This document shows, one piece after another, positions 16,706 to 44,805 of a stretch of 64,000 nucleotides of DNA (position 1 is its first letter; every line of letters starts with the position of its first letter). A program made the position numbers and the translations under genes. The notes below the pieces were generated by a model that saw only the letters and a program-made list of their open reading frames with translations, was not told the DNA's origin and made no database searches. The stretch is taken from positions 253 through 64,252 of the forward strand of contig NZ_JAQGJM010000021.1 in the NCBI RefSeq assembly GCF_028290625.1, given 5' to 3'. This stretch comes from Devosia sp. (GTDB lineage Bacteria; Pseudomonadota; Alphaproteobacteria; Rhizobiales; Devosiaceae).

Positions 16706-16947
16706 GTAAGAGCCACGTACGGCTGTGACGTGGGGAATAAAAGTTCCATGAATCCCCGATAGCCTTCCAGTATGCGGGGCATAAAGTTTCCACTGCCAGG
16801 CGAGGTGCCCGGGGTGGTGAAAAACGACGAAGGCGGCGGGGTTTCCTCGCCGCCAAGTAGCCAAGAGAACATTTAGTGAATCTGCGATTTGACAAAGATC
16901 TGACTTAGCGACCCGGCGACGGGTCACTCATTCAAAGGGCAATTTTG

Positions 16948-21130: not shown

Positions 21131-21569
21131 CCAGAAGCACAGATTGGTGGAAGCCCTGACGCTGGCCGGTACCAAAGAGATCGGCGGTCAGTTGTTCGGC
21201 GAACTCCTCGAGCCATCGAAGTTCCTCATCACCGAACTGGTCGTGCAGGCGAGACCCGGATCCTTCGCCCGGTTCGTGGTCGATCTCTTCCAAGCCGCTC
21301 GAGAAGCAATGCGGTTCTTCGACCGCACGGCGCACCGATACGTCGCCTTCAACTATATCGGAGAATGGCATAGCCATCCGAGCTTCGCGGTCAGGCCCAG
21401 TTCGACCGATGTGCAGACGATGCGAGGTCTCGTTTTGGAGCCCGATTTCCCAGGAAATTTCGCGGTTCTGGTCATCGTTCGGCTCGACGTTGACGAATTG
21501 ACTGTTGGCAGCTGGGTATTCGATCCACAAGGCCGCGAGAGCGAAGCGACGTTCGAGGTGCGGACGTGA
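21108..21569 (+). CDS. cap3: CBASS Cap3 (JAB/JAMM isopeptidase)
   Basis: JAMM motif EWHSHPSFAVRPSSTDVQTM (HxHx10SxxD) plus an upstream Glu in KEIGGQLFGE. Overlaps the cap2 end. Confidence 0.9.
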   Translation: MHLILAADQKHRLVEALTLAGTKEIGGQLFGELLEPSKFLITELVVQARPGSFARFVVDLFQAAREAMRFFDRTAHRYVAFNYIGEWHSHPSFAVRPSSTDVQTMRGLVLEPDFPGNFAVLVIVRLDVDELTVGSWVFDPQGRESEATFEVRT

Positions 21570-22978
21570 ACGATACAAAAGGCCCCACTCTCATCGACGC
21601 TCGTGGCATGGGCGGCATCATCGCCATAGATGGCTTCGATTACCAGCTCTGGGACTGCTTGGCCCGTATTCCTTCTTGGGTATCTAACCCAGTCTTCGAA
21701 CAACTGATCTTCGAGGGCCTAGAGGATCATGAAGCCAAGTTCTTTTCACCGCATAGTCCTCACCGAGCGGTGCTCGATAGGTACCAGGCCAAGGCCAGCA
21801 CACTGCAGCCTGCTGGGGTGAAAGAGGTCTTCGAAAATTTCCAGACCTATGATGAGGCGCATCCCAGCACCGCCCGGGTGCACACGCTGGTGATGCCGTC
21901 GCTTCCAGCGACATTGTCGTGGTTCACGAGTGACAAGAACCGTGTCCGAAAAGCACGGCCGTTTTACGCGCCCTTCAACACCATCACGGCGGCCAACGAA
22001 GACGGACTTCGCTCCACGATCGTTTCGACCTATCCTGGACCTTTAGGTGAATTCGTTGCCGACACCGTCGAGGTGCACGAACGCAATATGCCCGATCTTG
22101 CGAATGCGATGGCAACCTTCACCACGCAATTCAATATTGTATTTCCGCAGCTCGACGTCTCGTCGCGCAAAGTGGAGGCGGCGTTCGACGCTCTGGCCAA
22201 GCTGGTCAGAAATTCTGTGGGCGCGCCCATCGGTCGGGCAATCCTGATCGAGACGTTGGAAACGGCCATTGGAACATCCCTGCCTTTGCCGATGGCATTT
22301 CCTCTCAATGTGAGATCGGACAGGAACGAACAGGACGAAGCCAGTCTGGAGATCGATGCATCAGGTTTTTCCGGCGGCGACGCCGGCTACCCAGCTCCAC
22401 CGGTTTGGACCACCGATCTGTTGACCCCTCTGAGCGCCACATCCCAATGGCTGCGTCGACATGACGTTGTACGCATCGCGCCTAGAGGATCGTATCGCTT
22501 GACCACCGCATTTGCACTTGGATGGTCGTTCAGGTCGGCAATCGGCTTTGAGATCGATATTCCTACGAGGGACAGTCTCTGGCCCACCGATGACAGGCCG
22601 GTCGAGGGTTCACTGCCCGATTGGTCCATTCGACCGGCCACTCGTTTGCATGGCGGCAGGCTGCAGATCGCCATCGGCGTCATCCGGGATCCAACTGCAA
22701 CCTTGGTTGCATCGACCGAGATACCCGAAGACGCGATCATGTCTTTACATTTGCCCAGCGCCATGATGTCGGCGAAAGCTTCACAGGCCTCAGTCGGCCA
22801 TATCAAGCACAAGATCGATCAGGCAGTGTCCAGTCTACGCCCCGTGGGCATCGACATGTACTTCGTTGGACCAGCTGCGTTCGCCGTTGCCCTTGGTCAT
22901 CGCTGGAATGCGTTCCCGCCAACGCAACTTCATGAGTTCGTCGCGAACAAATATTCACCGACCGCGATCCTCGATTGA
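21566..22978 (+). CDS. cap4: CBASS effector, Cap4-like (N-terminal PD-(D/E)xK nuclease of DUF4297 type + C-terminal SAVED-like sensor)
   Basis: N-terminal GGIIAIDGFDYQLWD, FEGLEDHEAKF and RYQAKAS (nuclease motifs). The C-terminal half is roughly 250 aa with SAVED-like alternating beta/alpha segments (IAPRGSYRLTTAFALGWSF). GTGA overlap with cap3. Confidence 0.75.
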   Translation: MNDTKGPTLIDARGMGGIIAIDGFDYQLWDCLARIPSWVSNPVFEQLIFEGLEDHEAKFFSPHSPHRAVLDRYQAKASTLQPAGVKEVFENFQTYDEAHPSTARVHTLVMPSLPATLSWFTSDKNRVRKARPFYAPFNTITAANEDGLRSTIVSTYPGPLGEFVADTVEVHERNMPDLANAMATFTTQFNIVFPQLDVSSRKVEAAFDALAKLVRNSVGAPIGRAILIETLETAIGTSLPLPMAFPLNVRSDRNEQDEASLEIDASGFSGGDAGYPAPPVWTTDLLTPLSATSQWLRRHDVVRIAPRGSYRLTTAFALGWSFRSAIGFEIDIPTRDSLWPTDDRPVEGSLPDWSIRPATRLHGGRLQIAIGVIRDPTATLVASTEIPEDAIMSLHLPSAMMSAKASQASVGHIKHKIDQAVSSLRPVGIDMYFVGPAAFAVALGHRWNAFPPTQLHEFVANKYSPTAILD

Positions 22979-23173: not shown

Positions 23174-24409
23174 GTGGACTATGAAGAAGATTGTCCACCC
23201 GTAACCGGCAATCTGGCAAAGGTCGTCAAGATCGATCACGGAGCCGGTGTGATGCACGCCCGTCTGCTCGACGGGCGCACGGCGCAATGGACGGGCATGA
23301 CCGGAGACCTGCCAGAAGTCGGTGATGTTCTCCTCCTGACCGACAATCGTTGGCGGCAAGCCGACCCGGACGCCTGGACGACCTACAACTCCACCGCGAT
23401 CGTGAAGAACGTGATGGAGGACGGTACGGTGCTGCTCGATGACGGTTTTCGGATCGTGCCGATCGCAAACCCCTTGGACATCGAGGTCGCTCCGGAAAGC
23501 ACCGTTGAATACAACGACATTGACGGCATAGTGCGGTCGCTCTCGGACCAACCGATCAGAAGTGCCAGGGGTCAGCCGGAGATCGACTATTCGACCTCGG
23601 ATTTTCTGGTCGACAGCGCTGCCAGCGGATTGACGTTCGCGGACTTCGGTGGGTATCCGCACGTCATCGATCGTGCTCGCGAGCTCATCGAGACGCAGTT
23701 GAAGCGGCGAGACCTTCTCGACAGGATCGGCGCAAGGCCCGTGAAGGGGATCCTTTTCACCGGTCTGCCGGGAACGGGGAAAACCTTTCTGGCCAAGATC
23801 GTTGCGGCCGAGTCAGGTGCCGCTTTCTTTCTGGTGAGCGGGCCCTCGATAGTGAGCAAATGGGTCGGCGGCTCGGAAGGTACGCTACGCAGGATATTCG
23901 AGGACGCGGCAGATCATCCAAGCGAAAAGGCCATAATCTTTTTCGACGAGATCGACAGCATCGCGGAGCGGCGAACTGGGGACTCGCACGAGGCGTCGAA
24001 GCGACTCGTCGCGCAATTGCTGACGTTGATGGACGGCTTCGACGACAAAGGGCGCAACGTCGTGGTCATCGCTGCTACCAATCGCGTGGACTCTCTCGAC
24101 CCCGCATTGACCAGACCGGGACGTTTCGACTGGGAGATCGAATTCGGTCTGCCGACTCTGGAGGATAGGCTTCAGATCCTACTCGTCTCGGCAAGAACCC
24201 ACAGAATATCCGATGACCTTCATTTCGGCGAAATAGCCCGAGCCACTGAGGGATGGGCTGCTGCTAAACTCACCTCGCTGTGGAGTGAGGCCGCGCTGAT
24301 TGCGGCCGGAGATGGACGGGATTTCATTGCGGGGGAGGATATGGATCAGGCCTTCGAACGCGTGGCTTCTCGTCCCAGGCGAGGCGAAACCGCGGGAGAC
24401 ACCGCATGA
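23174..24409 (+). CDS. AAA+ ATPase (classic CDC48/FtsH-clade AAA domain) with ~180-aa N-terminal beta-rich domain
   Basis: Walker A GLPGTGKTFLAKIVAAE, Walker B AIIFFDEIDS, sensor-1/SRH VVVIAATNRVDSLDPALTRPGRFD. GTG start is uncertain. Confidence 0.85.
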   Translation: MDYEEDCPPVTGNLAKVVKIDHGAGVMHARLLDGRTAQWTGMTGDLPEVGDVLLLTDNRWRQADPDAWTTYNSTAIVKNVMEDGTVLLDDGFRIVPIANPLDIEVAPESTVEYNDIDGIVRSLSDQPIRSARGQPEIDYSTSDFLVDSAASGLTFADFGGYPHVIDRARELIETQLKRRDLLDRIGARPVKGILFTGLPGTGKTFLAKIVAAESGAAFFLVSGPSIVSKWVGGSEGTLRRIFEDAADHPSEKAIIFFDEIDSIAERRTGDSHEASKRLVAQLLTLMDGFDDKGRNVVVIAATNRVDSLDPALTRPGRFDWEIEFGLPTLEDRLQILLVSARTHRISDDLHFGEIARATEGWAAAKLTSLWSEAALIAAGDGRDFIAGEDMDQAFERVASRPRRGETAGDTA

Positions 24410-25749
24410 GGTTGCTGGAGCGGTTCAAGCGTTTATTCAACAAGAGGAAACCTACGCCTCCCCGTGTCGTTGTCGTGAATCGCAGTCTTTTGCGAGAGTT
24501 TGTCTATCTCGATGAGGTCAGCCTGCGAAGCCTGCTCTCTTCGCAGACTGGCGGGGTCACCGACAGCACTTCCGATGAAATTACGAGAGCGGCCGAAGCG
24601 GAGATAACCGGCGGCTTTGGGGCCACCTCGCCTGTGTTGAACGCTGAGGTCGGATCCAGATATCAGACCAGCAACAGCAGCACGCTTCAGACTTCGCGGA
24701 AGGCCACCGTGCAATCGTGGTTCCGCGAACTACTCGCCATCAGCGGCCTTCGCCTGATCGAAGTAGCGGAGGCGCCGCCGGATGTCGCAGAGTTGGACGA
24801 GGTGATTGCTGGCTCGCCTTCGCTAGGCGCAATAGGCGCCGCCCACCTGCGCCGTGGCGAATTGGTGGAATTTCGAGTGAAGCTCTCCGCGGACCCGGTG
24901 TTCCACATGAGCACAATGGTCACTGAATTCGCCGGTATGGCCGAGGACTTCCCAGGCAAACTGGCGCCTGATGCCGGCAAGGCGCTCGCTGAAGTGGAAC
25001 CATTGAACCGGATCCTGAGCAAACTCCTTGCCGGGCTCATTCCCATCCGCGGCGAGGCTGTTGACTACCGCGTGGCGACAGTGAGGGGACAGGACTGGCT
25101 GGTGCACAAGGCTATCGCTGAGAAGTTCGATCTTCCCAGCCGCCCTTTGATAATCGTAGGGGTCACCGAGCACTTGGCGTACTGGAAAGACATTCGGCGC
25201 GTATTGTTCTCCCAGGCCGAATTCACGATCCTCTGTCGAGTCTCCCGCAGCTTACTGCAGCCCACATGGACGCCGGTTAAGTTGGCGGACCTGTTCAAAA
25301 TGATCGCGCCCGATTTCGTCCAACAGATCAATGAAGCGAGCCTACTCTCGGTAAACCCCCAACAACGACCGAACGCTCAAGCTCCGGCGAACGCGGTCAT
25401 CCGCCCAGCTTTGAAGCACTACTCCACGAAACTGCTGAAGGTCGCGAAGTACAGCATCAGCAAGGAGCAGAAGGCCGTAGTGGGTGAACTGATCGAAAAC
25501 AGCTGCTCGGAGCAGTTGAACGCGGCGCAGGAGCGTCAGGCTTTCCGAATGATGAGGCAGTTGGTCGAGAGTTGGGTTCCGGTGGCAATCAGTCCGGAGC
25601 AAGACCTGGCTCTGAGGCAATCCGCCCGCAAGCAGGCAGAATCCAGACCAGCTTCGGCGGTCCGTTCTCGCAATATGGCGCGCTTGGAGCCCAGCATGGA
25701 GCCGCCTCCTGCTCTACTGGATGTAGAGGTGGTCGCCATATATTGGTGA
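24406..25749 (+). CDS. Uncharacterised 447-aa protein translationally coupled to the AAA+ ATPase (possibly DUF6414/DolA-like)
   Basis: ATGA overlap with the upstream gene. N-terminal LREFVYLDEVSLRSLLSSQTGGV followed by a Ser/Thr-rich segment and a helical C-terminus. No catalytic motif or TM segment recognised. Confidence 0.7.
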   Translation: MRLLERFKRLFNKRKPTPPRVVVVNRSLLREFVYLDEVSLRSLLSSQTGGVTDSTSDEITRAAEAEITGGFGATSPVLNAEVGSRYQTSNSSTLQTSRKATVQSWFRELLAISGLRLIEVAEAPPDVAELDEVIAGSPSLGAIGAAHLRRGELVEFRVKLSADPVFHMSTMVTEFAGMAEDFPGKLAPDAGKALAEVEPLNRILSKLLAGLIPIRGEAVDYRVATVRGQDWLVHKAIAEKFDLPSRPLIIVGVTEHLAYWKDIRRVLFSQAEFTILCRVSRSLLQPTWTPVKLADLFKMIAPDFVQQINEASLLSVNPQQRPNAQAPANAVIRPALKHYSTKLLKVAKYSISKEQKAVVGELIENSCSEQLNAAQERQAFRMMRQLVESWVPVAISPEQDLALRQSARKQAESRPASAVRSRNMARLEPSMEPPPALLDVEVVAIYW

Positions 25750-26150
25750 TATCGGACCGAGTGAAGCAGGACTCACGCCAACACCAGTATCGCGCGGCCC
25801 ACCCATACGCGATCGGACTATTGTTTCCGCCTGTCGCCGGGTCGCACGGCTGTCTGAGCGGCAAATCAGAGATCGTTGCCCAGGTAAAACGGGGGACATT
25901 GATCATCCCCACACATGAGTCAGGCCCTTGGTACGGAGTAGATATGACCAACGGGAGTACCGCATGTGTTCACAGCGAGTTTCTTGCGCAGCTCCGGTAA
26001 GTGTTCTCCACTCAAGTATGCGGACGCAGGGTGCCTACCCTGTTGTCCATCGATGCGTTCGTTGCGCGGATCTCGAACTTTGTGCGTGGCTGGCCGATGA
26101 AAATAGCCTAGTTGCAACTCTTAGGCATACAACGGTTATCTCTTCAAACT

Positions 26151-26180
26151 TGTCAGAAACTCGCCTATATGTATCTGACA
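26151..26180. promoter_or_regulatory. Inverted repeat upstream of abiEi (candidate autoregulatory operator)
   Basis: tgtcaga-N16-tctgaca, ending 15 nt before the abiEi ATG. AbiEi antitoxins are known to bind inverted repeats in their own promoters. Confidence 0.4.
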
Positions 26181-26194
26181 GAAAGGATTGCAAC

Positions 26195-26785
26195 ATGTCG
26201 GTAGTGGAAGAAGTGCGAGGGGCCATTAAAGGCAAGCGCAGCGGATCGGTGATCAGTGCCAGCATGTTTGCAAACATCGGCTCTCGCGAGGCGGTCGATC
26301 AAGCGCTCTCTCGTTTACGGAAGTCAGGAGAGTTGATGCGGGTTGCCCGCGGAATATATGTGCGGCCCGTCAATGGGAAGTTTGGCACTTATCCTCCGCA
26401 CTCCAGCGAAGTCGTGCGGTCGCTTAAGCACCATCAGCGAAAGCGGATCGTCGAGCATGGCCTGTCTGCGGCCAACCAGTTCGGCCTGACGACTCAGCAG
26501 CCACTTCGGCAAATCTATCTGACCAATGGTAGCAATCAGGTGCTCAAACTCGGCTCAAATCCGGTGATTCTGAGACATGCGCCAGAGTGGCAAACCATTT
26601 TCGCAAACCGGCCTGCTGGTGCCGCTTTGCGGGCGTTGTCGTATGTCGGCAGATCGGGCGCAGTGAATGCCGCACGGCAGATTAAAGCTCAGCTTCCTGA
26701 ACCGGAATGGGAAGTCTTGACGAAGGCGAAGAAACGATTTCCGGCTTGGGTAGCAAACGCAGTCGTGCAGGCTTCTAATGGCTGA
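26195..26785 (+). CDS. abiEi: Type IV toxin-antitoxin system AbiEi-family antitoxin
   Basis: SVISASMFANIGSREAVDQALSRLRKSGELMRVARGIYVRP is the AbiEi wHTH pattern. Start moved to ATG 26195. Overlaps abiEii by 8 nt. Confidence 0.85.
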   Translation: MSVVEEVRGAIKGKRSGSVISASMFANIGSREAVDQALSRLRKSGELMRVARGIYVRPVNGKFGTYPPHSSEVVRSLKHHQRKRIVEHGLSAANQFGLTTQQPLRQIYLTNGSNQVLKLGSNPVILRHAPEWQTIFANRPAGAALRALSYVGRSGAVNAARQIKAQLPEPEWEVLTKAKKRFPAWVANAVVQASNG

Positions 26786-27812
26786 CCCGTTTTTTCGCTT
26801 GAGCGAGCGGGACCGGATTGATGCCCTCGGTGCCGCAGGTGAACAATTAGGAAGACTCCCATTTATCCTTGAAAAGGACGTGATGGTTGTTTGGTGCCTC
26901 AGTGCTGTTTTTTCCTCGGCAGATGGATCCCACCTGTCTTTTAAAGGCGGTACTTCTCTGTCCAAAGTGTTTCGCCTGATCGATAGATTCTCAGAGGACA
27001 TCGACCTGACCTACGACATCAGGCGATTGATCGGCGATAAATTCGATATTCCTGTGAATGGGCTCCCTGCCACTAAGAGCGAGGGGCGCCGATGGACGGA
27101 TGAGGTGAGAGTTCGGCTTCCCGAATGGATCGAAGCGGAACTCATCCCAATTCTAAGCCGACAAGCGGAAATGGACGGGCTGAAACTGACGTTTCGCCAG
27201 ACCACCAAGGAAACTCTGAATGTCGACTATGCGCCTTTGCAAGCTTCCAGAGGGACCTACGTCAAACCCTCTGTTCTTCTGGAATTCGGCGCGCGTTCAA
27301 CCGGTGAGCCGGTTGAAGATCACTTAGTAGCATGCGATGCAGCCGAGCGTTTGCCTGGGATCTCGTTCCCTGAAGCTCGCGTAAGAGCCATGCAGGTTGG
27401 TCGAACATTTTGGGAAAAGGCGACGGCGGCCCACGTATACACATTGCAGGACACCCCAAAGGGTGACCGGTTTTCACGCCACTGGCATGACCTGCACTTT
27501 ATTGCCAAATCGGGATATTTCGATAGCGCCGTCACCAATCACGCTCTTGCCCAAACCGTGGCTGATCACAAGGCTCTTTTTTTTGCCGAGCGAGAGACGC
27601 CTGAAAAGTGGATCGACTACGGTGCTGCCGTAAACGGGGCGCTTAAGATCGTCCCGAGCGGACAGGCGCGTGATGCACTAGAGGCGGACTATGCCGAAAT
27701 GAAGGAGGCAGGGATTTTATCCCAGGACGCGCCAGACTTTAAGACAATCATGGACACTTGCTTGAACATAGAGCGCCGCGCCAACGAAATAGATTCCCCA
27801 TCACTGGAGTGA
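26778..27812 (+). CDS. abiEii: AbiEii/AbiGii-family nucleotidyltransferase toxin
   Basis: LSFKGGTSLSKVFRLIDRFSEDIDLTYD is the NTase GS..D.D motif typical of AbiEii. Confidence 0.9.
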   Translation: MADPFFRLSERDRIDALGAAGEQLGRLPFILEKDVMVVWCLSAVFSSADGSHLSFKGGTSLSKVFRLIDRFSEDIDLTYDIRRLIGDKFDIPVNGLPATKSEGRRWTDEVRVRLPEWIEAELIPILSRQAEMDGLKLTFRQTTKETLNVDYAPLQASRGTYVKPSVLLEFGARSTGEPVEDHLVACDAAERLPGISFPEARVRAMQVGRTFWEKATAAHVYTLQDTPKGDRFSRHWHDLHFIAKSGYFDSAVTNHALAQTVADHKALFFAERETPEKWIDYGAAVNGALKIVPSGQARDALEADYAEMKEAGILSQDAPDFKTIMDTCLNIERRANEIDSPSLE

Positions 27813-28108: not shown

Positions 28109-30946
28109 TCAACCGAACTCGTTTGGTCCTTTGATGATTAGTGTCCTGCGCTTTGCATGCACTCGCAGTTTCAGGCGAGAGAGCATCTCGAGAACAACAT
28201 CCACTGCGCGGTACGAAAAGAGGGGTGCGTCCGTTTTTTGATTATCGGACACGAGATCGGTGATCACACTGACGACGGCAATAGGCAATTCCTTGGAGAT
28301 TGCATTGGCCGCCTGAATAGCACCGGCTGCTCCTACGTCGAGAGCCGCCACGTTTCTGGCAACAGAGCTGATGACACTCGCGTCCACATATCCAAGCGCG
28401 GAACTGACTGATGCGAGCGATCCCACATGAAGGCGCCCGAAACGACCATCAATGGCCATGTCATGCCCCAGGCGCTGCAGGAGGAGCGGCGTCACAAGGA
28501 CTTGCGGCCGAATGTGATTGAGCTCATTTGACATGAACGTTGGTTCGAAGATTAGCACTTCCGACGAAATGACGACGTCGCCGATGCTCTGATTGGGCCT
28601 AAGTCCGCCACAGCGGCTTACGATGAAAACCCCGTCCGGGCGATTGTCGATCAGCATTGAGGTCATCGCAATCGCGGCGGCAACGCTGTTGGCTTCGCGA
28701 AGGATAGTGCACGTAACTCTAACTCCGTCGCGCGTTACGCCTCGGAAGTAGAGACGGCCGGACCGCGAGAACCGGCTGACGCGCAACAACCTCTCGAAGA
28801 ACGCGCTCGCCGCTTCATCGCCCTCAAGCAGAATTCCGATACGTGGTTGGCTGGAAACCTCGTCTATTGTCACGGGCTGAAGATCGTGCCGTTCCAACAC
28901 CCCGTTTGCGTCGACAGCGAGTGCGCTCCTCACTCCACCGTCCCTGACCACGGTGCCGATCACGATGCCGAGGACGTTGCCTTGCTGATCGGACACGACT
29001 GCTCCAGAGCCGCCCTCCTCAACCGGTGAATCGAGCGAGACCTCGAACACGTCGCGGTACCTTCGCTTGATCATGCCGGTGGATTGGATGTCCATGGTAA
29101 TCTCGACAGCGTCGATGCTGCCCTCGATCATCTTGGTAGGCATTTCAACGAACGCCCGCGCACCAGGTTGGCGAAAACCAAGTGCGCGCGGAGAAAATGA
29201 GAGTTCCCTTTCGACCCGGAGGATCGCCCAATCCGTGCTTCCCTCATGGATGTCAAGGGTGAGTGGGATGCGCCGCCCATCAACGACCATCTCGATGCTG
29301 TCTTGGAGAATGGTTGGAAACGCATGGGCGACGGTGACCGCGAATAGCTGGCCGGTGACGTCGGCTCCGAACAGGCCAACAGTCGCACGTCGCTCGCCAT
29401 TGACAAGGAGTTCGTGTCCGCTGGTGTAGTTCGCCGAAGTCAACTTGATTTCCTCAACTTCGCGCACGACCACCTCGAACCCTTCGATTTTGTGAGGGAG
29501 GTTCGGTTTTGCTCCCTTTTCCACCGTAACGACGATTGCCTGCTTGATTCCCACCCCGATAACACCCTGCTTCGTCATGAGCGCATCCCGTTCTGCATCG
29601 AGGACGTCATGGATCGTGGGGGCTGTATCAACCGGCTGTGCCGAACCTAGTGTGGCATCGTCATTTGGCGCGGCTTGGTGGGGCGAAGCCGGTGCCGATT
29701 TAACAACGGCTCGGTTCTGGTAGGCGGTCTCGACCACCTCGATCAAGGCGTTTGCGCCTGCCTCCCAAGAGCATTTTGATTCCAAATGGCCACGCAGACG
29801 CGGGTAGAAATATGAGTCGCCTGAGCCGTCGATAAGAAGGGGCAGCGTCGCGTCTGCGAACCGTTGCGCTGCCGCGTGCGCATCTCCTGAGGTATCGACG
29901 ACGCATGACCCAAAATCTTGACCTGCCTCGGCGCCGGTTTCAAGTATGAGTTCGGCTATTCCGCTCTGCCTCGAAACGACTATCGGAGCTCCAAACGACA
30001 TCGCCTCGCACGCGACTAAGCCATATCCTTCTTCGCGCGAAGGCATTAGAAACGCAGTGGCGCCGCGCAGGTCGGCGTTCAGGTTCTGCTTATCGGTAGT
30101 GTAAGGGCGCACCACAATCTCAGGATTGCCGCCTGCCTTCTCCGCGAGACGCACGAGCGCTTCCTGAAGCTTTTCGGGCTCGCTCTCTGCTCCCCGCACG
30201 ACGAAACGAGGTTTGAGTATTCTGGATCTAGTCTGTGCGCTCGTCGTCCATTCTTTATCGATGATGCCGGCCATAAGAGCGAATATGTCGAGGCCCTTTA
30301 CGCCGACGCTTTCAGTTCGTCCAAGGCAGACTACCGTGGGCTGCTCGGGCGCTGCGTTGCGGACGGGTTGCTCAGGCGAGAGCCCGCAGTCTATGCGATG
30401 GACCTTGTTGTGGTCGAGTTGATGCGCCTTGAAAGTGTCCTTGGTAACGCGCGTGAGACGCGGTCCCACACAAAAAACCAGGTCCGCACTTTTGGCCGCT
30501 TCAAGTTCGGCTCTTTGCTTCTCCTCGCGCTCGGAAACGTACCGGTCCTTCTTGCCCTCTTTCATGCCTTCCGTGCGCATCGGGTCCATGTGGATAAATT
30601 GGACGGTATTGGCTTGTTTGAAATAGGTGTTGCGAAGCAGAAGCGCCTGCTTGCCGGAGAAAGAGCTGTGGCCGACCACGGCCAAGACCGAACTCGGATC
30701 GATCCGTCGAACATCTTCGGATAGCATCACGCTTTCCCATTTGTCGGATTCCGCACCGTGTAGCAACGTGACGTTGTTGTTGTACGCCTGCTCGACCTCG
30801 CTCTTGTCGGCGAAGCTGACGACCGCAATGCAGTTGAGGTCGGGCCTTGTCTTGGCCAACGCTAATAGCAACTCGCGATTGACCGTCTGTATGCCGCCCT
30901 TGCTGCTGTCCCAGCGATTCATGACGAAGATGATGCTTTGCTTCAT
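28109..30946 (-). CDS. Triple-fusion protein: GT4-type glycosyltransferase + trypsin-like serine protease + PNP/MTAN-like nucleosidase domain (divergent)
   Basis: Residues 1-~420 are GT-B/GT4, with FLMPSREEGYGLVACEAMSFGAPIV (E-x7-E). Residues ~450-690 carry an S1 triad: AVTVAHAF (His), STDWAILRV (Asp), EEGGSGAVVSDQQGNVLGIVIG (Ser). Residues ~700-945 align by eye to E. coli MTAN: SVAAAIAMTSMLIDNRPDGVFIVSRCGGLRPNQSIGDVVIS and NVAALDVGAAGAIQAA..AVVSVITDLVSD. The VEME acidic motif is replaced by LDVG. Confidence 0.8.
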   Translation of the reverse strand: MKQSIIFVMNRWDSSKGGIQTVNRELLLALAKTRPDLNCIAVVSFADKSEVEQAYNNNVTLLHGAESDKWESVMLSEDVRRIDPSSVLAVVGHSSFSGKQALLLRNTYFKQANTVQFIHMDPMRTEGMKEGKKDRYVSEREEKQRAELEAAKSADLVFCVGPRLTRVTKDTFKAHQLDHNKVHRIDCGLSPEQPVRNAAPEQPTVVCLGRTESVGVKGLDIFALMAGIIDKEWTTSAQTRSRILKPRFVVRGAESEPEKLQEALVRLAEKAGGNPEIVVRPYTTDKQNLNADLRGATAFLMPSREEGYGLVACEAMSFGAPIVVSRQSGIAELILETGAEAGQDFGSCVVDTSGDAHAAAQRFADATLPLLIDGSGDSYFYPRLRGHLESKCSWEAGANALIEVVETAYQNRAVVKSAPASPHQAAPNDDATLGSAQPVDTAPTIHDVLDAERDALMTKQGVIGVGIKQAIVVTVEKGAKPNLPHKIEGFEVVVREVEEIKLTSANYTSGHELLVNGERRATVGLFGADVTGQLFAVTVAHAFPTILQDSIEMVVDGRRIPLTLDIHEGSTDWAILRVERELSFSPRALGFRQPGARAFVEMPTKMIEGSIDAVEITMDIQSTGMIKRRYRDVFEVSLDSPVEEGGSGAVVSDQQGNVLGIVIGTVVRDGGVRSALAVDANGVLERHDLQPVTIDEVSSQPRIGILLEGDEAASAFFERLLRVSRFSRSGRLYFRGVTRDGVRVTCTILREANSVAAAIAMTSMLIDNRPDGVFIVSRCGGLRPNQSIGDVVISSEVLIFEPTFMSNELNHIRPQVLVTPLLLQRLGHDMAIDGRFGRLHVGSLASVSSALGYVDASVISSVARNVAALDVGAAGAIQAANAISKELPIAVVSVITDLVSDNQKTDAPLFSYRAVDVVLEMLSRLKLRVHAKRRTLIIKGPNEFG

Positions 30947-31314: not shown

Positions 31315-34300
31315 ATGACCGAGTCGAAGTATTTTGACATTGTGGTTGTCGTGCCGCTTGAAGAGGAACTGCTTGAGGTCATCGAGCAGTTTCCGAGCAT
31401 TGAAGACCGAAGCTCCACCACGACGTGGTGTCATGTAGTCGATTCCGGGAAGCCTGGCATATCGATGCTCATCGTCCAGCAGCAGACGATGGGCAAAACC
31501 GCCGCTATAAATGCTGCGAATTTCGTTCTTTCAAAGTACGAAGCCGGCCTTATGGTCTGCCTAGGCATTGCTGGAAGTTTGAGCGGCGACGCCCGCCTGG
31601 CCAGCGTGTGCTATTCTGGCAGCATCATCGACGTCCTGGACAATGCGAAATTCGTCGACACCGACGACGGCGCCGCCGACACCGAACTTTCCCCGACCAA
31701 TTACGACACGCCGGACGAATTCACGCAGGCGTTCAATTATATCCGCACACAACCGGCCCTGTTCAAGTTTCACCAGGACTGGCAAGAACAGCGCGCTTTG
31801 GTCGCAAAAGAACTGGTTCCGCATGAAGTGCCCGCTCCTGGTGGTGGTACGGAACAAATTGGCAAGCCAACGTCCAAGGGCGGCGTGATCGTGTGCGGCT
31901 CGGTCAGTAAGAGCCACGTGTATAATGCCAAATTGCGAAAAATCGATCGCGCTTTGCTTGCGGTTGAAACGGAGTCCGGAGGGGTGTTCTCGCAAGCCCA
32001 TTTCCATGGCAGCGTTCCTGCTATCGCAGTGCGCGGCATTTCCGACTACGCCGACAAAGACAAAGGCCGGCTCGAGGATGCCAGCAAAGGTGGCGTGCGC
32101 CGGCTGGCTGCATCCAACGCGGCTTCGTTTCTTAAGCTCCAGATCGTCTGCAACACCTATTTTCATGCTGCGCTCGAAAGGCGCCGCACGGGCAGGCAAC
32201 AAGCTTTAGTCCTGGATAACCGGCCGGTAGTAGTTCAACCGCTCAGCGAACTGATGCTCGGGTTAGGTATTGCTGTGGATGCCGCACTGCGAAAACTCTC
32301 ACCCGAATACAAACTTCAGCCACAAGGCTATCATCTTCCTCTGCCGCGCATCCGTCGCCCAAACGCAACCAATGCGATCGGGACCAAGAGCGATAGCTCA
32401 CCCACCGATGTTCTCGACGCGCTGCAGGTTCAGGAAAAAATCCTCGTGAGCCTACCGCGCACATATCCGGACCACAGCCTCGCCTGGGTCATGGCCGACG
32501 ACTTGCTCACGCAGGAAATTGACGGACGACAGCCGGTACCGGTCGTGATTAACGGCGACGACATCCGGGGAAAGCGGTTCGGCTTTAACGACGTCGTCGA
32601 TATCGACCTGAACGCAATCGAGGCCATGGACGGCACTCAACTAGTTCTTATCGTTGATAACATTCCATTTGCTTCAAAGCACAGAATGGAACAGATCGTC
32701 GCCGAGATCGAGCGCTACAGCAGTGCAAAATTCATTTTTGTGACGAGGGCGGGAGACGCCGGCCTCCTCGATGAGTCAGACTTTCTAACACAGTCGGGCG
32801 CAGAGCACTTCCAGATCTGCGCTGTGTCTTTTTTCGAAATCGCGCATTTTATCCAGAAGAATTTTGGGATGACGGGCGCTGAAGCGGAGGTTGTCGCACT
32901 TCGACTTCGCGATACGTTTGAACGGTTTGATCTCGATGCTCATCCCACATACTTTGCTGGCATCCCGAAGGAAACCCTGACCGCGCTACTGCAGGCGAAC
33001 CGCCGGTCCGAACTCATTCAGCTAGCGGTCGATGGCTTCCTGACCTTCATAGTGGCTGGCGATCGCGCAGACGTCTCGCTCAGTCGGTCCACCAGGGCGC
33101 GTTTTCTGCGAAAACTTGTGGTGGAAATCAACGTCGAAAAGCGAGCCTTTGAAGAAGCCGATCTGGTTGCTTTCACGCGTGAGTTTGCAGAACTGCACGA
33201 TTTCGACATCGACCCACTGGCGTTTATCAATGGGTTCGTTGACCAAGGCATCATGCATTTTGAAGGCGGCAGGGCCCGTGTCTCGTTGCCGTTTGTGGAA
33301 TCGTATTTGCTTGCTTCGGAGTTGCACGCATCGTCAGACCTCGCACTGCGCTATTTTGATCCTGGCGACGATAACTTCGATACTGTCACTTTCGACCTTT
33401 ATGCAGAAATCGGTGCGTCGGCCGATCTCGTGCAGAGGATCGAAGCTGGACTCGAGCAGTGCATGATCGCCCTCAAGGAAAAGAACCCGGGCAAGCATAT
33501 ACTTCTCACTGACAGCATTTCCCCGGCAAATCTGCAAAAACCCGAACGAGCAGGAGCTTTGCGCAAGCGACTGCAAAAGGCTGCTGACGCAGTGCGGGAC
33601 GGAAAGGACGAGAGCCAGGAAAAGCAGCGCATGCTTGATCTGAGCGAAAAGATCCGGGAGGCCTCCGGCCGGCAGCAAAAAAGCCAGGATGGTGAAAGCG
33701 ATAAAGCTGGCGATATGGACAGAACGTTTGTGCCGCTCAACGATGCCGCGCGTCACTGGGTTATCGCCACTTTGCTCCTCGGTTCCGGCGCGGAGCACTT
33801 GAACGCCAGAACAAAACGCGCGCTAAGCACGTCGATTATCAGCAGCGCCGCTTTGATCATTGATGAATGGTGTCGCCAGCAGCAAAAAATCGACTTTGCT
33901 GCGATCAAGCGGAAAATGACCACTGACGAAGCCTTGGCTGACCTGCCTGGCGGGGAGGACATTGAAGAAAAGCGCAAGTTCATCGACGGGGGCGTCGATA
34001 TTCTGGAGTACACCGCGCTTGCCGAGCCGTTGCGACGCGTTTTGGGCTTCCTTTGCGAGCAAGCTAGACACCGCGTTCTCGCACCAAGCGTTGAGGCTGC
34101 CACAGTCGACGGCGCCATCGAAAAGATAATCCACGGCACCTGGCTAGCCGATATCGACACGGCCCGCGGCAAGGACAAACTCCGTCAGGCAATCATCGAT
34201 CTGCCGACAGCACAATTCTTTCGGGTTATCCTCGCCTCCCATTACCTGGCTCGGGTCTATTGGAATCACTGGCGTAAAGAGGATCGATTGCACCTGCTGA

Positions 34301-34431
34301 ACTCCGCTGAGGAGGTGATCAAGCCGCTTGAACTCAAGATCAACAAATCCGAGCTCAAACGGATGATCGAGACCGAAGCGGAAAAGGCGGCCAAAGAAAA
34401 AAGGCTGGAGACCGAAATCCGCAAAGGGTGA
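31315..34431 (+). CDS. PNP/MTAN-like nucleosidase fused to a STAND-like NTPase module with a degenerate P-loop and a long helical C-terminal region
   Basis: The N-terminal ~270 aa align to MTAN: DIVVVVPLEEELLEV, MGKTAAINAANFVLSKYEAGLMVCLGIAGSL, LLAVETESGGVF and AVRGISDYADKD, so the canonical acidic motifs are retained. The middle has STAND-like landmarks KILVSLPRTYPDHSL (no GK[ST]), QLVLIVDNIPF (Walker B-like), KFIFVTRAGD and ICAVSFFEIAHFIQKNFG. Confidence 0.75.
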   Translation: MTESKYFDIVVVVPLEEELLEVIEQFPSIEDRSSTTTWCHVVDSGKPGISMLIVQQQTMGKTAAINAANFVLSKYEAGLMVCLGIAGSLSGDARLASVCYSGSIIDVLDNAKFVDTDDGAADTELSPTNYDTPDEFTQAFNYIRTQPALFKFHQDWQEQRALVAKELVPHEVPAPGGGTEQIGKPTSKGGVIVCGSVSKSHVYNAKLRKIDRALLAVETESGGVFSQAHFHGSVPAIAVRGISDYADKDKGRLEDASKGGVRRLAASNAASFLKLQIVCNTYFHAALERRRTGRQQALVLDNRPVVVQPLSELMLGLGIAVDAALRKLSPEYKLQPQGYHLPLPRIRRPNATNAIGTKSDSSPTDVLDALQVQEKILVSLPRTYPDHSLAWVMADDLLTQEIDGRQPVPVVINGDDIRGKRFGFNDVVDIDLNAIEAMDGTQLVLIVDNIPFASKHRMEQIVAEIERYSSAKFIFVTRAGDAGLLDESDFLTQSGAEHFQICAVSFFEIAHFIQKNFGMTGAEAEVVALRLRDTFERFDLDAHPTYFAGIPKETLTALLQANRRSELIQLAVDGFLTFIVAGDRADVSLSRSTRARFLRKLVVEINVEKRAFEEADLVAFTREFAELHDFDIDPLAFINGFVDQGIMHFEGGRARVSLPFVESYLLASELHASSDLALRYFDPGDDNFDTVTFDLYAEIGASADLVQRIEAGLEQCMIALKEKNPGKHILLTDSISPANLQKPERAGALRKRLQKAADAVRDGKDESQEKQRMLDLSEKIREASGRQQKSQDGESDKAGDMDRTFVPLNDAARHWVIATLLLGSGAEHLNARTKRALSTSIISSAALIIDEWCRQQQKIDFAAIKRKMTTDEALADLPGGEDIEEKRKFIDGGVDILEYTALAEPLRRVLGFLCEQARHRVLAPSVEAATVDGAIEKIIHGTWLADIDTARGKDKLRQAIIDLPTAQFFRVILASHYLARVYWNHWRKEDRLHLLNSAEEVIKPLELKINKSELKRMIETEAEKAAKEKRLETEIRKG

Positions 34432-35225: not shown

Positions 35226-37196
35226 TTAGTTGAGCACGCGCCGCGGCGGCTGCGGTGCTGCCAGTCCTGCTCCTCGAACCGTGGCTGCAACGATGGCTTC
35301 CATCTCCTCTCTTCGATCCAGCAAGATACCAGATGCTCGAGCAATTGCCGCGTCGAGACGACGACGCACGCTACCAACTATGGCGGCCGGGAGTATTGTC
35401 CGCAAGACGGGATCTTCGAGGTCGACCAACCCCGCCTCACCCAATCCAGATCTGGTCTCGATTTGCCGTGCCCATGCAGTAGCCAAGGCAAGATCAGAGT
35501 AATTTGAACCCACACCCAACAATGACGCGCCGCCGAACAGAATTTCTTCTGCCGCCCGGCCTGCCATCAGAACGGCGATCGCGTCATTATAGTCCTGCCC
35601 GGTTGGAACGTGGCCTGCCTCCAGCGTCCGGGAAAGGGTTCCGCTGAAATCCACGATCTCCTCCGCGGCAACATCCATCATGTCCAAGGCTTGGGCCACG
35701 ACGACTTGGCCAGCGCGATAAGTGGCAATACGACGCCGGACCTCTGGCGGCAGTTTCTCAAAAACGCCGGGGACTTGCTGGTGCAGAGCCGAAATCGAGA
35801 AGGGGCGCCCTGCCCGACGCGCGGTTGCCCTTGCCGCACGGACCAGCTTTTCGATGTCCGCTCCAGTCTTGCCTTGCAACTTTGGTGCCAGTGTCCGCAG
35901 CTCTTTCTTGGCGATGCTCGAACCTGCATAGTGGGCCAAGATCGCGGTGATCTCGTCGGAGCTTGGAAGCTTCATGATAATAGTATGGTCGAGCCGGCCA
36001 GACCGCGTGAGGGCAGGATCGATCCGCTCGACGTAGTTCGTCGCGCCAACCAGCACGAGACCTGGAGTGGTCGTTGCCTGCGTCACGAGCTCCAACATCA
36101 AATTGACGATCTGCGTCCAGTACTCAGCGTAGCGTCCAGAGATACTCTGCCGGCTTGATATGCCATCGAGCTCGTCGACGAGCAAAACGCAGGGCGCCTT
36201 CTCCATCGCCTCGTTGAACACCATCCGCATCTTTTTAAGTGTGCCCGAGAGATAGTCTTGCGTGTTCCATTCCGCGACGCTCGAGGCGATCAGGGGAACA
36301 TGCAGCGTACCCGCCAAGAGGCCGGCGAAGCTGGTCTTCCCCGTGCCAGGCGGGCCTGCCAGCAGCACGGAGCGGTGATCAACTTCCTCCCACGACAGTT
36401 GGCCACGCCGCCAGATCTCGAAGTCTTGAGCGAGCTCCAGACCCCAAACTCGTGCCTCCCCATAGCCGTGCTGGTCCTGCAATCTGGCGCGATCGACCTG
36501 CTTTACCGGCTCCTTCGGCATCAACGACTTGAGGCTGTCGACGCAGGCCTCTGGCGAGCGCCCGCGTCGGAAATGCAGGGCCAGATCACTTGCGGCCAGC
36601 TTACTTGGACTGCCCAGGTCTGAAAAGTTAGCTGGCATCCGGCCAAAAAATTCGACGAAGGCAGCTGCTAGCATGTCGCGTGTCAGTGTGGAGGCGTCGA
36701 CGATGACATCGGCGACTGTGGTGAACTGGGCAGGCGCACTCGCCTCAGGATCATAGAGCCAAACCACCGGCAGGCCACGTCTTCCGGCGTCGGCCGCCAG
36801 TCGTAGGCGCTCGTCAATTCTGGATCCGGAGCCAATGAAAATTGGGTATTTATCTTGGGCGCGCAGTTGATATTGAGGCTCAACGATAGCTCCTGAGGCC
36901 GACAGAACGACTTTGAGCACGCTGGCCATCAGCCCCGCATCCTCGGTAGTGCGAACCGTTATTGCGATGAATTGGGTGGTGGTGGCGAGCTCATTCAGGG
37001 ATTGAAAATGGGGCGCCAGGGCCAAGCCGATTAGGTGCGCGGCAAGAACGTGCTCGGCACCGTAGCCGGGCACGGAAATTGGTTCTGACAGGTCGTCGAC
37101 TTCTGACGACGGTTCGCTGGCGACGTTGGCGCGAAGCTGCTGAAGAATGAGTTCAGTAAGCGGATTTGATCCAGCGCTGGATTTAGAAGTGACCAC
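35226..37196 (-). CDS. Soluble FtsH-like AAA+ protein with an inactivated M41 peptidase domain
   Basis: Walker A LLAGPPGTGKTSF, Walker B VLLVDELDG, SRH LVGATNYVERIDPALTRSGRLD. The C-terminal region is collinear with FtsH M41 (MAGRAAEEILFG, SNYSDLALATAWARQ), but the HEAGH zinc motif reads YRAGQ (IATYRAGQVVVAQAL). No N-terminal TM helices. Confidence 0.8.
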   Translation of the reverse strand: MVTSKSSAGSNPLTELILQQLRANVASEPSSEVDDLSEPISVPGYGAEHVLAAHLIGLALAPHFQSLNELATTTQFIAITVRTTEDAGLMASVLKVVLSASGAIVEPQYQLRAQDKYPIFIGSGSRIDERLRLAADAGRRGLPVVWLYDPEASAPAQFTTVADVIVDASTLTRDMLAAAFVEFFGRMPANFSDLGSPSKLAASDLALHFRRGRSPEACVDSLKSLMPKEPVKQVDRARLQDQHGYGEARVWGLELAQDFEIWRRGQLSWEEVDHRSVLLAGPPGTGKTSFAGLLAGTLHVPLIASSVAEWNTQDYLSGTLKKMRMVFNEAMEKAPCVLLVDELDGISSRQSISGRYAEYWTQIVNLMLELVTQATTTPGLVLVGATNYVERIDPALTRSGRLDHTIIMKLPSSDEITAILAHYAGSSIAKKELRTLAPKLQGKTGADIEKLVRAARATARRAGRPFSISALHQQVPGVFEKLPPEVRRRIATYRAGQVVVAQALDMMDVAAEEIVDFSGTLSRTLEAGHVPTGQDYNDAIAVLMAGRAAEEILFGGASLLGVGSNYSDLALATAWARQIETRSGLGEAGLVDLEDPVLRTILPAAIVGSVRRRLDAAIARASGILLDRREEMEAIVAATVRGAGLAAPQPPRRVLN

Positions 37197-38752: not shown

Positions 38753-39424
38753 ATGCTTGATTCTACATCCTTCACCCCTACCCTGCACAGCCGCGCCTCG
38801 CGGCACATCGCCCTTCGAGCAAAGGGGCACTTTTCCGGCGCCTGCGTCATATACAAGGGCGGGACGCGCCAACTCGTCGTCTTTGAATCGCGGTGTGAAC
38901 TCGTGACCAGCTACCGCTGGTCCACCCGTCCCGACGTCGTCGACCTCATCGATCAGTATCCACTCGATCCCTACGTCGATGACGACGGGTCTGAGCACCG
39001 CCACGTGCTGGACTTCCTTGCGATCATGGACGACGGCCGACGGATCGGCCTCTCGGTGAAGCCCGAGGGTTCAGCGCAGCGCCGCGACTTCCGCCGCACC
39101 CTGCAGCTGATCTTGGCCCAAAACGCGGACCACCTGGACGAACTGCGCCTTGTGACTGAGAAGTCATTCACTCGGGCAGAAGCCGAAAACGCGGAACTGA
39201 TCCATTTCGTCGGCTCCGAAATCGACGACGAAGCGGATCGCCTGGTCGCAGATGTGATCGCCAGCCTCGCTGGAACGACCACGATCGAGAGCATCGTCAA
39301 CGCCACAGGCCTCGAAGGCCGCGCCTTCCGCGCCGTCATTCGCATGGTGGGTCGACGGGTCTGTTTCCAGGTCGATGAAGGTCGGCTGCGCTATCCCACA
39401 CTCGTACGCAGGAATGCAGCATGA
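38753..39424 (+). CDS. tnsA: TnsA-like endonuclease (Tn7-type transposition protein A)
   Basis: Restriction-endonuclease-fold motifs in order: VVFESRCE, HVLDFLAIMDDGRRIGLSVKPEGS (E...D...xK). Confidence 0.75.
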   Translation: MLDSTSFTPTLHSRASRHIALRAKGHFSGACVIYKGGTRQLVVFESRCELVTSYRWSTRPDVVDLIDQYPLDPYVDDDGSEHRHVLDFLAIMDDGRRIGLSVKPEGSAQRRDFRRTLQLILAQNADHLDELRLVTEKSFTRAEAENAELIHFVGSEIDDEADRLVADVIASLAGTTTIESIVNATGLEGRAFRAVIRMVGRRVCFQVDEGRLRYPTLVRRNAA

Positions 39425-39660
39425 ACCCGTTCCGTTTTTCCGCTGCCGACACCGTCAAGATCGCCGGAACCGTGTTTCAGCTCTGCGACGTGCGGCTGGA
39501 TGGCTATCTCCTTCGCCGCGCCCCCGACAATGCTGCCGAGTTCCACAGCAACGCCCAACTGATGGACATGTGGGTCCACGGCCTCGTTGACCCGCAGTTT
39601 GCTAACCCTGGTCCTTACTGGCAGGGGAAGATGCCAGACGCAGACGGTGCTGCGAAATGA
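39421..39660 (+). CDS. Small protein (79 aa) coupled between tnsA and tnsB
   Basis: ATGA overlaps at both ends (39421-39424 and 39657-39660). Weak similarity to the first ~50 aa of the downstream TnsB. Confidence 0.5.
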   Translation: MNPFRFSAADTVKIAGTVFQLCDVRLDGYLLRRAPDNAAEFHSNAQLMDMWVHGLVDPQFANPGPYWQGKMPDADGAAK

Positions 39661-41804: not shown

Positions 41805-41806
41805 GC

Positions 41807-44628: not shown

Positions 44629-44651
44629 CTCACGCTCGGCGGCCATTTTCG

Positions 44652-44676
44652 AACCCAGCCGAGAGGCTGGGTTTTC
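44652..44676 (+). terminator. Rho-independent terminator after tniQ
   Basis: aacccagcc-gaga-ggctgggtt followed by ttc/t-rich sequence, 24 nt after the tniQ stop. Confidence 0.6.
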
Positions 44677-44782
44677 TGTCTCTGCGAAAATGTGGAGAAA
44701 ACCCGAAGGCGCTGCTTTGTCCGCACCGCTGGCAGCCTTATGGTCGAGGACAGGCAGACTAGGCGATATCGGACGGTTTTCA

Positions 44783-44805
44783 AGCCCCGGATTCCGGGCT
44801 TTTTA
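44783..44805 (+). terminator. Second terminator-like hairpin between tniQ and the hipA-like gene
   Basis: agccccgg-att-ccgggct followed by ttttt. One bulged base in the stem. Confidence 0.45.

Follow-up and report, generated by a model that had tools for sequence, protein, structure and literature searches.

What might bring a glycosyltransferase, a serine protease and a nucleosidase-like domain together in one bacterial polypeptide? The question is raised by a gene on a 64,000-nucleotide stretch of Devosia sp. DNA (contig NZ_JAQGJM010000021.1; this whole stretch is called the window in the following), whose product of 945 residues contains a GT4-type glycosyltransferase, a trypsin-like protease and a PNP-fold domain. 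On balance, we favour the reading that it is a stand-alone cytoplasmic GT4-conflict/serine protease/PNP protein, which is predicted to serve as an effector cassette against invaders, i.e. phages or mobile elements, and which is carried in horizontally acquired islands.

Domain architecture and active sites

The open reading frame (ORF) lies on the minus strand and extends from an ATG at position 30946 to a stop codon at 28109-28111; its 945 codons plus stop are not interrupted. A full-length model was computed with AlphaFold2 from an alignment of 29 full-length homologues and reached a predicted local distance difference test (pLDDT) value of 83 and a predicted template-modelling (TM) score, pTM, of 0.68. 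It consists of a GT-B fold (residues 1-417), a linker (418-441), an α/β domain (445-502), two β-barrels (512-690), the α/β PNP domain (702-923) and a β-hairpin (925-938), and the identified domains cover the entire chain; the boundaries adopted are given in Table 1. The motifs from which the original prediction had deduced three enzymatic modules in one ORF were all found in the translation where it had placed them, and Pfam, profile comparison and AlphaFold2 models searched with Foldseek support each of the three domains. An assembly chimera can be ruled out, because about 45 full-length clusters of homologues share the architecture. Neither a transmembrane segment nor a signal peptide was detected in the protein (Kyte-Doolittle maximum 1.36); as it possesses no hydrophobic stretch fit for a signal peptide or a membrane helix, the product should be soluble and cytoplasmic. 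Pfam and the AlphaFold2 model revealed neither a STAND (signal transduction ATPases with numerous domains) NTPase nor a repeat sensor in the window protein.

The N-terminal domain belongs to the Pfam entry PF20706, "GT4 in conflict systems", which is a family of its own. The match comprises residues 7-401 and model positions 2-385 of 385 and scores 281.8 bits (cut-off 26, E = 1.1e-83), whereas the generic GT1 models of Pfam score 46-55 bits. Foldseek matches of this domain in the PDB were GT-B enzymes, among these GlgM and glycogen synthase. The segment SREEGYGLVACEAMSFG at residues 303-319 contains the motif E306-x7-E314; this motif and the GxKG motif of the domain align with those of P. abyssi glycogen synthase. 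The donor-binding and catalytic residues of GT4 enzymes are present (G18-G19, His119, Arg210, Lys217, Glu306, Glu314), and the last five of these are invariant among the 29 homologues as well as in all 13 clusters of what we call the window clade (at least 53% identity). Judged from these residues, the site of a retaining GT-B glycosyltransferase is apparently competent. Outside the family, the most similar GT4 domains share about 41-44% identity and occur in fusion with STAND-type modules (PF00931, PF13191, PF13401, PF20703). Within the window clade, sequence identity is 71% for the GT4 domain and only 28% for the linker at residues 418-441, whose pLDDT is below 50; this linker is a candidate for a flexible tether or a cleavage region.

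For the protease, the Trypsin_2 model of Pfam gave a match below its cut-off (residues 536-661, 21.8 vs 27.6 bits, single sequence). Among the relatives scanned, P0181, P0182 and P0186 pass this cut-off (28.4-35.4 bits); P0014, P0029 and P0032 remain below it. A single-sequence search of the protease region against the PDB was marginal (E = 0.01), so that the assignment draws on a family profile and a structure model. A profile of 22 sequences covering residues 442-698 retrieved HtrA/Deg/Rv3671c proteases from the PDB sequences (E = 6e-11); the triad residues His, Asp and Ser coincide in the alignment. For a separate AlphaFold2 model of the pre-protease and protease region (pLDDT 88), the best Foldseek match was rice NARROW LEAF 1 (NAL1; PDB codes 8PMM, 8HAU, 7Y77) with E = 3e-10 and a query TM score of 0.64; α-lytic protease and streptogrisin B (target TM score 0.76) were matched as well. 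The triad is found in the contexts AVTVAHAF (residues 536-543, His541, codon 29324-29326), STDWAILRV (570-578, Asp572, codon 29231-29233) and EEGGSGAVV (643-651, Ser647, codon 29006-29008). His541, Asp572 and Gly645-x-Ser647-Gly648 are invariant in the 29 homologues, and the triad is intact in all clusters of the window clade; the original statement that the triad and the E-x7-E motif are intact is borne out by this invariance. With its double β-barrel, the order His-Asp-Ser and the GxSG motif, the enzyme is predicted to be a chymotrypsin-fold protease (Clan PA/S1), and its site looks competent.

No segment of the protein is better conserved than the pre-protease domain, which is 79% identical within the window clade, compared with 59% for the protease. 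In NAL1, a small α/β module likewise stands directly before the two β-barrels. The query coverage of the NAL1 match exceeds that of structures containing the protease only, so that the match probably includes the pre-protease domain, and we infer from the model that this domain is equivalent to the ATP-binding module of NAL1. The latter binds ATP and forms a trimer interface; through it the NAL1 protease assembles into a hexamer, the only form in which it is active (PMC12012508). Note that the two proteins share only 14% sequence identity, that NAL1 is a plant developmental protease, and that ATP binding and hexamer-dependent activity have been shown for NAL1 alone.

A decayed nucleosidase site in the window clade

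The PNP_UDP_1 model of Pfam matches residues 703-908 with 38.6 bits (cut-off 25.1), and the Foldseek matches of the domain in the PDB are 5'-methylthioadenosine/S-adenosylhomocysteine nucleosidases (MTAN; E = 4e-16, target TM score 0.75-0.83); 1Z5N and 1Z5O, structures of MTAN mutants, are among them. MTAN requires both Glu174 and Asp197. The original prediction had aligned the domain by eye to MTAN and regarded its site as degenerate; an alignment with S. aureus MTAN (E = 2e-5) reproduced this result, with LDVG (residues 869-872) in place of VEME and TD (T896-D897) in place of SD. Val871-Gly872 replace Met-Glu, Ser893 replaces Arg, and Val847-Ser848-Ser849 replace Gly-Glu-Lys. The equivalents of Glu174, which contacts the ribose, and of Arg193 are thus lost as Gly872 and Ser893, and the general acid Asp197 is kept as Asp897.

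These losses are a property of the clade. In all 13 clusters, Glu is replaced by Gly and Arg by Ser or Gly, and the position of Asp897 is occupied by Asp in seven, Glu in four, Asn in one and Thr in one of them. All 23 distant relatives keep the motif [DE]-M-E-x-AG, including the Glu, and the Asp; most have R-G-I-x-D, and S-G-E-K is found in 20 of the 23. The profile scores follow this pattern. The PADLOC model of the PNP effector of the cyclic oligonucleotide-based antiphage signalling system (CBASS; PDLC00759) matches the window copy with 19.7 bits (E = 6e-5) and at residues 737-807 only, compared with E-values of 6e-12 to 3e-33 in relatives keeping the Glu. Five of six relatives scanned score 60-109 bits with PNP_UDP_1 and 63-113 bits with the PADLOC model; the values of P0014, the closest outgroup, are 84 and 42.9 bits. 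By these sequence criteria, the PNP lineage of the wider family is of the immune, CBASS PNP-effector-like type, and the window copy has diverged from it. The role of an ATP-nucleosidase effector, which the original prediction had brought into play, is unlikely for the window copy, since it has lost key residues of catalysis, and cleavage of ATP by it is improbable. Within the clade, identity of the PNP domain nevertheless amounts to 56%, close to the 59% of the protease. The simplest reading is that the PNP domain of this clade is a pseudo-enzyme, retained for a structural or regulatory role.

A further trait of the clade is the C-terminal tail. Two strands (residues 925-930 and 933-938) form a hairpin in the AlphaFold2 model, and the motif LKV..R.KRR.L.I is clear in about 10 of the 13 members and divergent in P0011 and P0013. 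As the more distant relatives, whose PNP site is intact, lack the hairpin, the alignments suggest that the window clade has gained a basic, largely conserved C-terminal element.

Family members and architectural variants

A word-indexed search identified 58 relatives; the architecture is complete in about 45 clusters. These stem from Mesorhizobium, Acetobacter, Bosea, Planctomycetota, Phycisphaerae and others; a Mesorhizobium homologue is 62% identical to the window protein. An exhaustive phmmer search with residues 442-945 against 1.84 billion representatives gave only 26 matches at E <= 1e-10. Most of these proteins have a length of 920-990 residues and contain the module at about residues 430-940; several are shorter. 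Judged from these matches, the protease-PNP unit is rare, and in near-full-length proteins it is almost always preceded by a region of the size of a GT4 domain.

Several relatives deviate from the common design. In two metagenomic proteins of about 1400 residues, P0027 and P0029, a NACHT or NACHT-like (NPHP3_N) region is appended C-terminally to GT4, trypsin and PNP. The metagenomic protein P0186 (826 residues) has the order PNP, trypsin, PNP, and P0181 has an N-terminal extension. The NACHT-bearing relatives suggest that the triple module is an effector cassette: in their predicted architecture, it occupies the "effector" position of immune proteins that resemble NLR proteins (nucleotide-binding proteins with leucine-rich repeats). 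One family member (L006 10001-12780), from the metagenome-assembled genome (MAG) of an uncultured alphaproteobacterium, is split over three reading frames, due either to pseudogene formation or to an artefact of sequencing indels.

Comparison with known systems

According to the original prediction, no described system combines these domains in one polypeptide. This claim had to be given up: the architecture "GT4+Trypsin+PNPase" is listed for a Mesorhizobium sp. protein of 961 residues (RWH25252.1) in Figure 6-source data 1 of a computational survey of bacterial immune proteins, in which GT4 was put forward as an effector of conflict systems (Kaur, Iyer, Burroughs & Aravind, eLife 2021, PMC8195603). 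This survey is the sole paper on conflict-system GT4 domains that our literature searches yielded. The proteins listed there and the window protein agree in domain order, size, GT4 subfamily and predicted effector role. In that paper the architecture is an entry of the source data; it is not discussed in the passages searched, and nothing was tested. The source data contain neither the string PNPase+NACHT nor PNPase+Trypsin, and in the passages and source data searched there is no mention of a PNP decay, a NAL1-like module, NACHT-fused or PNP+trypsin+PNP variants, or the rarity of the family. The window protein consequently belongs to a computationally known kind and does not represent a new class of system. 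The present analysis goes beyond that paper in the following points: in the window clade, the PNP domain is inactivated with the two other sites kept; a NAL1-like module precedes the protease; variants with a fused NACHT region or the order PNP, trypsin, PNP exist; the family is rare; and the neighbouring PNP-STAND gene, described below, is independent.

PNP domains of immune ATP nucleosidases are known from Cap17 (CBASS) and DtcC (Detocs), whose activities are abolished by the exchanges D472A and D353A, respectively (Rousset et al. 2023, bioRxiv 10.1101/2023.01.24.525353). The PNP_UDP_1/MTAN fold is shared, and relatives keeping the Glu also retain the Asp needed by Cap17 and DtcC; in contrast, the Glu and the Arg are gone in the window copy, and the window protein has neither a cyclic-nucleotide sensor nor a receiver domain nor a conserved signalling partner. 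Cassettes consisting of a trypsin-like protease and a pro-effector occur in Hachiman, Argonaute and AVAST systems, where licensing of the effector by proteolysis has been demonstrated (bioRxiv 10.1101/2025.09.03.673762; PMC12799240). As in the window protein, a chymotrypsin-fold serine protease is part of an immune module and accompanies a toxic enzyme. In those systems, however, the protease acts on a separate protein, a metallo-β-lactamase nuclease, and a helicase or NTPase sensor controls the two, whereas protease, GT4 and PNP form one chain here, which has no nuclease and no sensor NTPase and for which cleavage is a proposal. With bacterial NLR-like (STAND/NACHT) proteins, the family shares the N-terminal placement of the GT4-trypsin-PNP unit in P0027 and P0029; the window protein itself has no NTPase module.

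In immune proteins of both bacteria and invertebrates, GT4-conflict domains are predicted to act as effectors; in corals, the genes concerned have undergone a very large expansion. A compact single-gene variant that is naturally PNP-dead and has PNP-intact relatives offers a convenient entry point to their function: the clade-specific loss of the nucleosidase site amounts to a natural separation-of-function experiment, and the protein would be well suited to testing, for the first time, the function of a glycosyltransferase as immune effector. It raises the questions whether a glycosyltransferase can act in this way, which target it glycosylates, and whether it is licensed by the fused protease.

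Loci of the homologues

Ten annotated loci, the window included, were compared. Seven of these (the window, L011, L014, L015, L016, L020 and L003; Table 1) are defence or mobile-element settings. A polysaccharide, lipopolysaccharide (LPS) or other cell-envelope gene cluster was found at none of the ten. With three domains supported, an architecture that recurs in about 45 clusters, mostly defence or mobile-element settings and no cell-envelope cluster at the annotated loci, none of the observations named by the original prediction as refuting it was made. We also searched for a conserved partner gene by comparing 13 neighbours from the window with the fetched homologue loci other than L021, using tblastn; none was detected. 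The homologues are single genes without a common neighbour. No model of a known defence system in PADLOC covers the window protein beyond weak PNP and protease matches, and scans for promoters and terminators around its gene gave nothing exceeding the expectation from shuffled sequences.

The neighbouring PNP protein

Divergent from the GT4 gene and separated from it by a gap of 368 bp lies an ORF encoding 1038 residues, whose N-terminal PNP domain keeps the canonical motifs ETE and RGISD. The family of this protein comprises more than 140 clusters, mostly from Alphaproteobacteria. Many homologues carry a precomputed nSTAND_NTPase4 annotation, and one of them, P0139, scores 26.9 bits with this model, just under the cut-off of 27; because of these matches, the family apparently consists of NLR-like proteins with PNP as effector (PNP-nSTAND4). 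The 1038-residue protein also gave weak PADLOC matches to the candidate systems PDC-M60C and PDC-S60.

The original prediction had treated the two genes as a divergent pair. Their adjacency and the PNP domain of the neighbour stood up to inspection; a functional unit did not, as the co-occurrence is not conserved elsewhere. By tblastn, no homologue of the 1038-residue protein was found to adjoin the other family members examined at the fetched loci. A relative from Devosia crocina, 83% identical to the 1038-residue protein, follows an integrase and a DUF927 gene and has no GT4 gene within its 10-kb flanks. Likewise, paralogy of the two adjacent PNP domains was rejected, since BLASTP gave no detectable likeness (E = 1.7). 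For these reasons, the adjacent PNP-nSTAND4 gene is best explained as a separate system, and the divergent arrangement as a packing of independent defence genes.

Immune-type PNP proteins were encountered near family members in three of nine informative loci, with a different architecture in each. Besides the window, these are L020, where a protein of unusual architecture is divergent from the family member P0023, and L003. With the family's own PNP hidden Markov model (HMM), the three neighbours score 49.5 bits (window), 107 bits (L020) and 98 bits (L003). Such neighbours seem commoner than expected, the expectation being one without a measured background rate. A PNP gene of 299 codons next to the Mesorhizobium homologue was considered as a fourth case and dismissed; as it has no match to the family PNP HMM and lies beside an ABC-transporter operon, it was treated as a housekeeping gene.

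Proposed function and alternatives

We propose the following mode of action. The protein would be held inactive, as a monomer or a closed oligomer, until an assembly driven by infection turns the enzymes on; this step is suggested by the hexamer-dependent activity of the NAL1 protease and by PNP/MTAN-fold enzymes being obligate oligomers. The protease would then cut a target or its own chain, e.g. at the disordered linker, and the GT4 domain would use an NDP-sugar to glycosylate a macromolecule of the host or the invader, which would halt the production of phages. In relatives with an intact site, the PNP domain may in addition cleave ATP or other nucleotides in the manner of Cap17 and DtcC, whereas in the window copy it would be only a scaffold or an oligomerisation module. 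The GT4 gene would act alone, without the neighbouring gene.

It is conceivable, although we attach a small chance to it, that the PNP domain of the window clade is a non-catalytic ligand sensor or a homotypic adaptor, which gates protease and GT4 together with the NAL1-like pre-protease domain and the basic hairpin; the pre-protease domain might bind nucleotides, and the protein might be wired to neighbouring immune PNP proteins by PNP-PNP contacts. If this were true, the protein would be a self-contained sensor-effector with glycosylation of proteins or nucleic acids as its killing or blocking activity, and the first glycosyltransferase-based abortive-infection effector. Decidedly unlikely is a fully active triple effector, in which the PNP domain of the clade has turned to another substrate or chemistry (e.g. 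that of a phosphorylase, or another nucleotide) and all three enzymes attack the cell or the phage. The MTAN-like fold is well predicted, Asp897 is kept in the window copy and in 7 of the 13 clade members, and a domain still 56% identical within the clade is under constraint; but the Glu and the Arg, which all or nearly all of the 23 distant relatives conserve, are lost throughout the clade, the Asp has become Glu, Asn or Thr in 6 of the 13, unlike a conserved new active site, and the window copy scores only 38.6 (Pfam) and 19.7 bits (PADLOC), compared with 60-113 bits in five of six relatives. A two-gene system, modelled on the effector-associated or Death-like domains that join proteins, is quite improbable. 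Here, the dead PNP domain would be a homotypic adaptor docking onto the PNP domain of the PNP-nSTAND4 protein, whose STAND sensor would control the GT4 and protease effectors. The divergent adjacency across 368 bp, the canonical motifs of the neighbour, the PNP proteins at three of nine loci and the oligomeric nature of PNP/MTAN-fold enzymes would suit this arrangement. However, no PNP-nSTAND4 homologue lies beside the other members examined, including P0008 and P0012 of the same clade (for P0002, about 0.5 kb downstream was covered); the neighbour's family is large and independent and has a Devosia crocina member without a GT4 gene; the two PNP domains lack pairwise similarity; and the partner architecture differs at each locus, six of the nine loci having no partner, so that clustering of defence genes suffices as an explanation.

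Two other explanations deny a defence role or an intact function. That the gene is a decaying relic on its way to a pseudogene, with the PNP decay as first sign, could be argued from the lost residues and the split relative in L006, whose breaks may, however, be sequencing indels; with 13 full-length clade clusters, invariant GT4 and protease residues, a pre-protease domain 79% identical in the clade and a conserved tail gained, we consider it very improbable. Hardly credible is a housekeeping or cell-envelope glycosyltransferase fused by chance to a protease and a salvage nucleosidase: two loci, L018 and L019, do lie among ordinary metabolic genes, but the protein lacks a signal peptide and transmembrane segments, no locus contains a polysaccharide or LPS cluster, the best Pfam model is conflict-specific by a wide score difference (281.8 vs 46-55 bits for GT1), and the distribution is sporadic and rare, with mobile or defence contexts, atypical codon composition (see below) and NACHT-fused relatives. 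The effector reading, which we prefer, has to accommodate several opposing observations. The surroundings of L018 and L019 resemble ordinary chromosome, and L012 is ambiguous, flanked as it is by a giant DEAD/YjiV_N helicase gene and the operon of a housekeeping transporter. Among 72,556 plasmids there was no full-length homologue, only matches to the GT4 domain (e.g. in Rhizobium tumorigenes), and none was found in the viral contigs of IMG/VR; carriage by plasmids or phages is unsupported by these searches. A sensor domain is not recognisable in the 945-residue protein, and the loss of the MTAN-type residues argues that the ancestral reaction is lost, a new chemistry being possible. The literature searched contains no experimental study of a GT4-conflict (PF20706) protein; the defence role of the family is predicted from context and domain logic, and self-cleavage, oligomerisation and glycosylation target enter the scheme as putative elements.

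The defence island of the window

The island is flanked by a class II ribonucleotide reductase and a major facilitator superfamily (MFS) transporter. Five genes sampled from the island have a GC content at third codon positions (GC3) of 0.57-0.66, compared with 0.78-0.86 in flanking housekeeping genes; that of the Tn7-like tnsB is 0.75. A tRNA gene marking the island was not found in the window. The original assignment of the GT4 gene to a defence island was confirmed by a type II CBASS operon and an AbiE pair in the same island. The CBASS operon is complete (PADLOC E-values: CD-NTase 9e-134, E1-E2 2e-146, JAB 1e-51, SAVED-endonuclease 8e-204) and has its own effector, the SAVED-endonuclease.

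Table 1. Coordinates of the gene, its domains and neighbouring features; positions refer to the window unless a homologous locus is named
Feature	Position	Strand	Evidence or remark
Whole gene, single-gene GT4/serine protease/PNP-fold protein	28109-30946	-	ORF listing, translation
GT4-conflict glycosyltransferase domain, GT-B fold, residues 1-417	29696-30946	-	Pfam, Foldseek, alignment
Disordered, fast-evolving linker between GT4 domain and protease module, residues 418-441	29624-29695	-	pLDDT, identity
Pre-protease α/β domain, one helix and β-strands, residues 442-503	29438-29623	-	AlphaFold2 models
Serine protease, chymotrypsin fold, residues 504-698	28853-29437	-	Profile, Foldseek, triad
MTAN-fold PNP domain with decayed active site, residues 699-923	28178-28852	-	Pfam, MTAN alignment, Foldseek
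C-terminal basic β-hairpin tail, residues 924-945	28112-28177	-	AlphaFold2 model, alignment
1038-residue protein with N-terminal PNP domain	31315-34431	+	ORF listing, Pfam
Tle1-like phospholipase catalytic domain of type VI secretion system (T6SS) type, fused to LysM, left island edge	16945-18327	+	
Complete type II CBASS operon: cyclase, E1-E2, JAB, SAVED-endonuclease	18432-22978	+	PADLOC
IetA-like AAA ATPase (411 residues), 4-bp overlap with DUF6414 protein (447 residues)	23174-25749	+	
AbiEi/AbiEii pair	25928-27812	+	
656-residue AAA+ ATPase	35226-37196	-	Weak C-terminal Peptidase_M41 (FtsH-like) match
Tn7-like set: TnsA-like, Mu-type TnsB, TniB/TnsC, TniQ	38753-46474	+	
L020: 1286-residue PNP+PEP-utilizers+PPDK_N protein, divergent from P0023	L020 3430-7290	-	Unusual architecture
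L003: 580-residue immune-type PNP protein, two genes from family member	L003 15034-16776	-	
Window locus			CBASS and AbiE
L011			PIN-TPR-GreABC system adjoining family member
L014			Integrative element, SRA-HNH enzyme
L015			Type I-C CRISPR-Cas, toxin-antitoxin genes
L016			IS66 elements
L020			RusA, Dam methylase, RelA_SpoT
L003 (Planctomycetota MAG)	L003 4327-20040		Large serine recombinase, weak SduA_C match, HerA-like ATPase, radical SAM enzyme

The remaining genes of the island are of diverse type. At its left edge lies the Tle1-like phospholipase; no T6SS genes are visible within the window. The DUF6414 protein (Pfam E = 3e-58) has no PADLOC match, and together with the overlapping IetA-like ATPase it is possibly an uncharacterised two-gene defence module. 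At its N-terminus, the AbiEi ORF is extended by about 90 residues, which weakly match RNHCP, a zinc ribbon. On the other side of the 1038-residue protein, the ATPase part of the 656-residue protein resembles IetA of the IetAS defence system (PADLOC E = 4e-25); no partner gene of the 656-residue protein was identified. Judged by gene order, the GT4 gene appears to lie outside the Tn7-like element, on its tnsA side. Behind the Tn7-like set lie the genes of a HipA_2-like kinase and a DUF3037 protein, which could be cargo.

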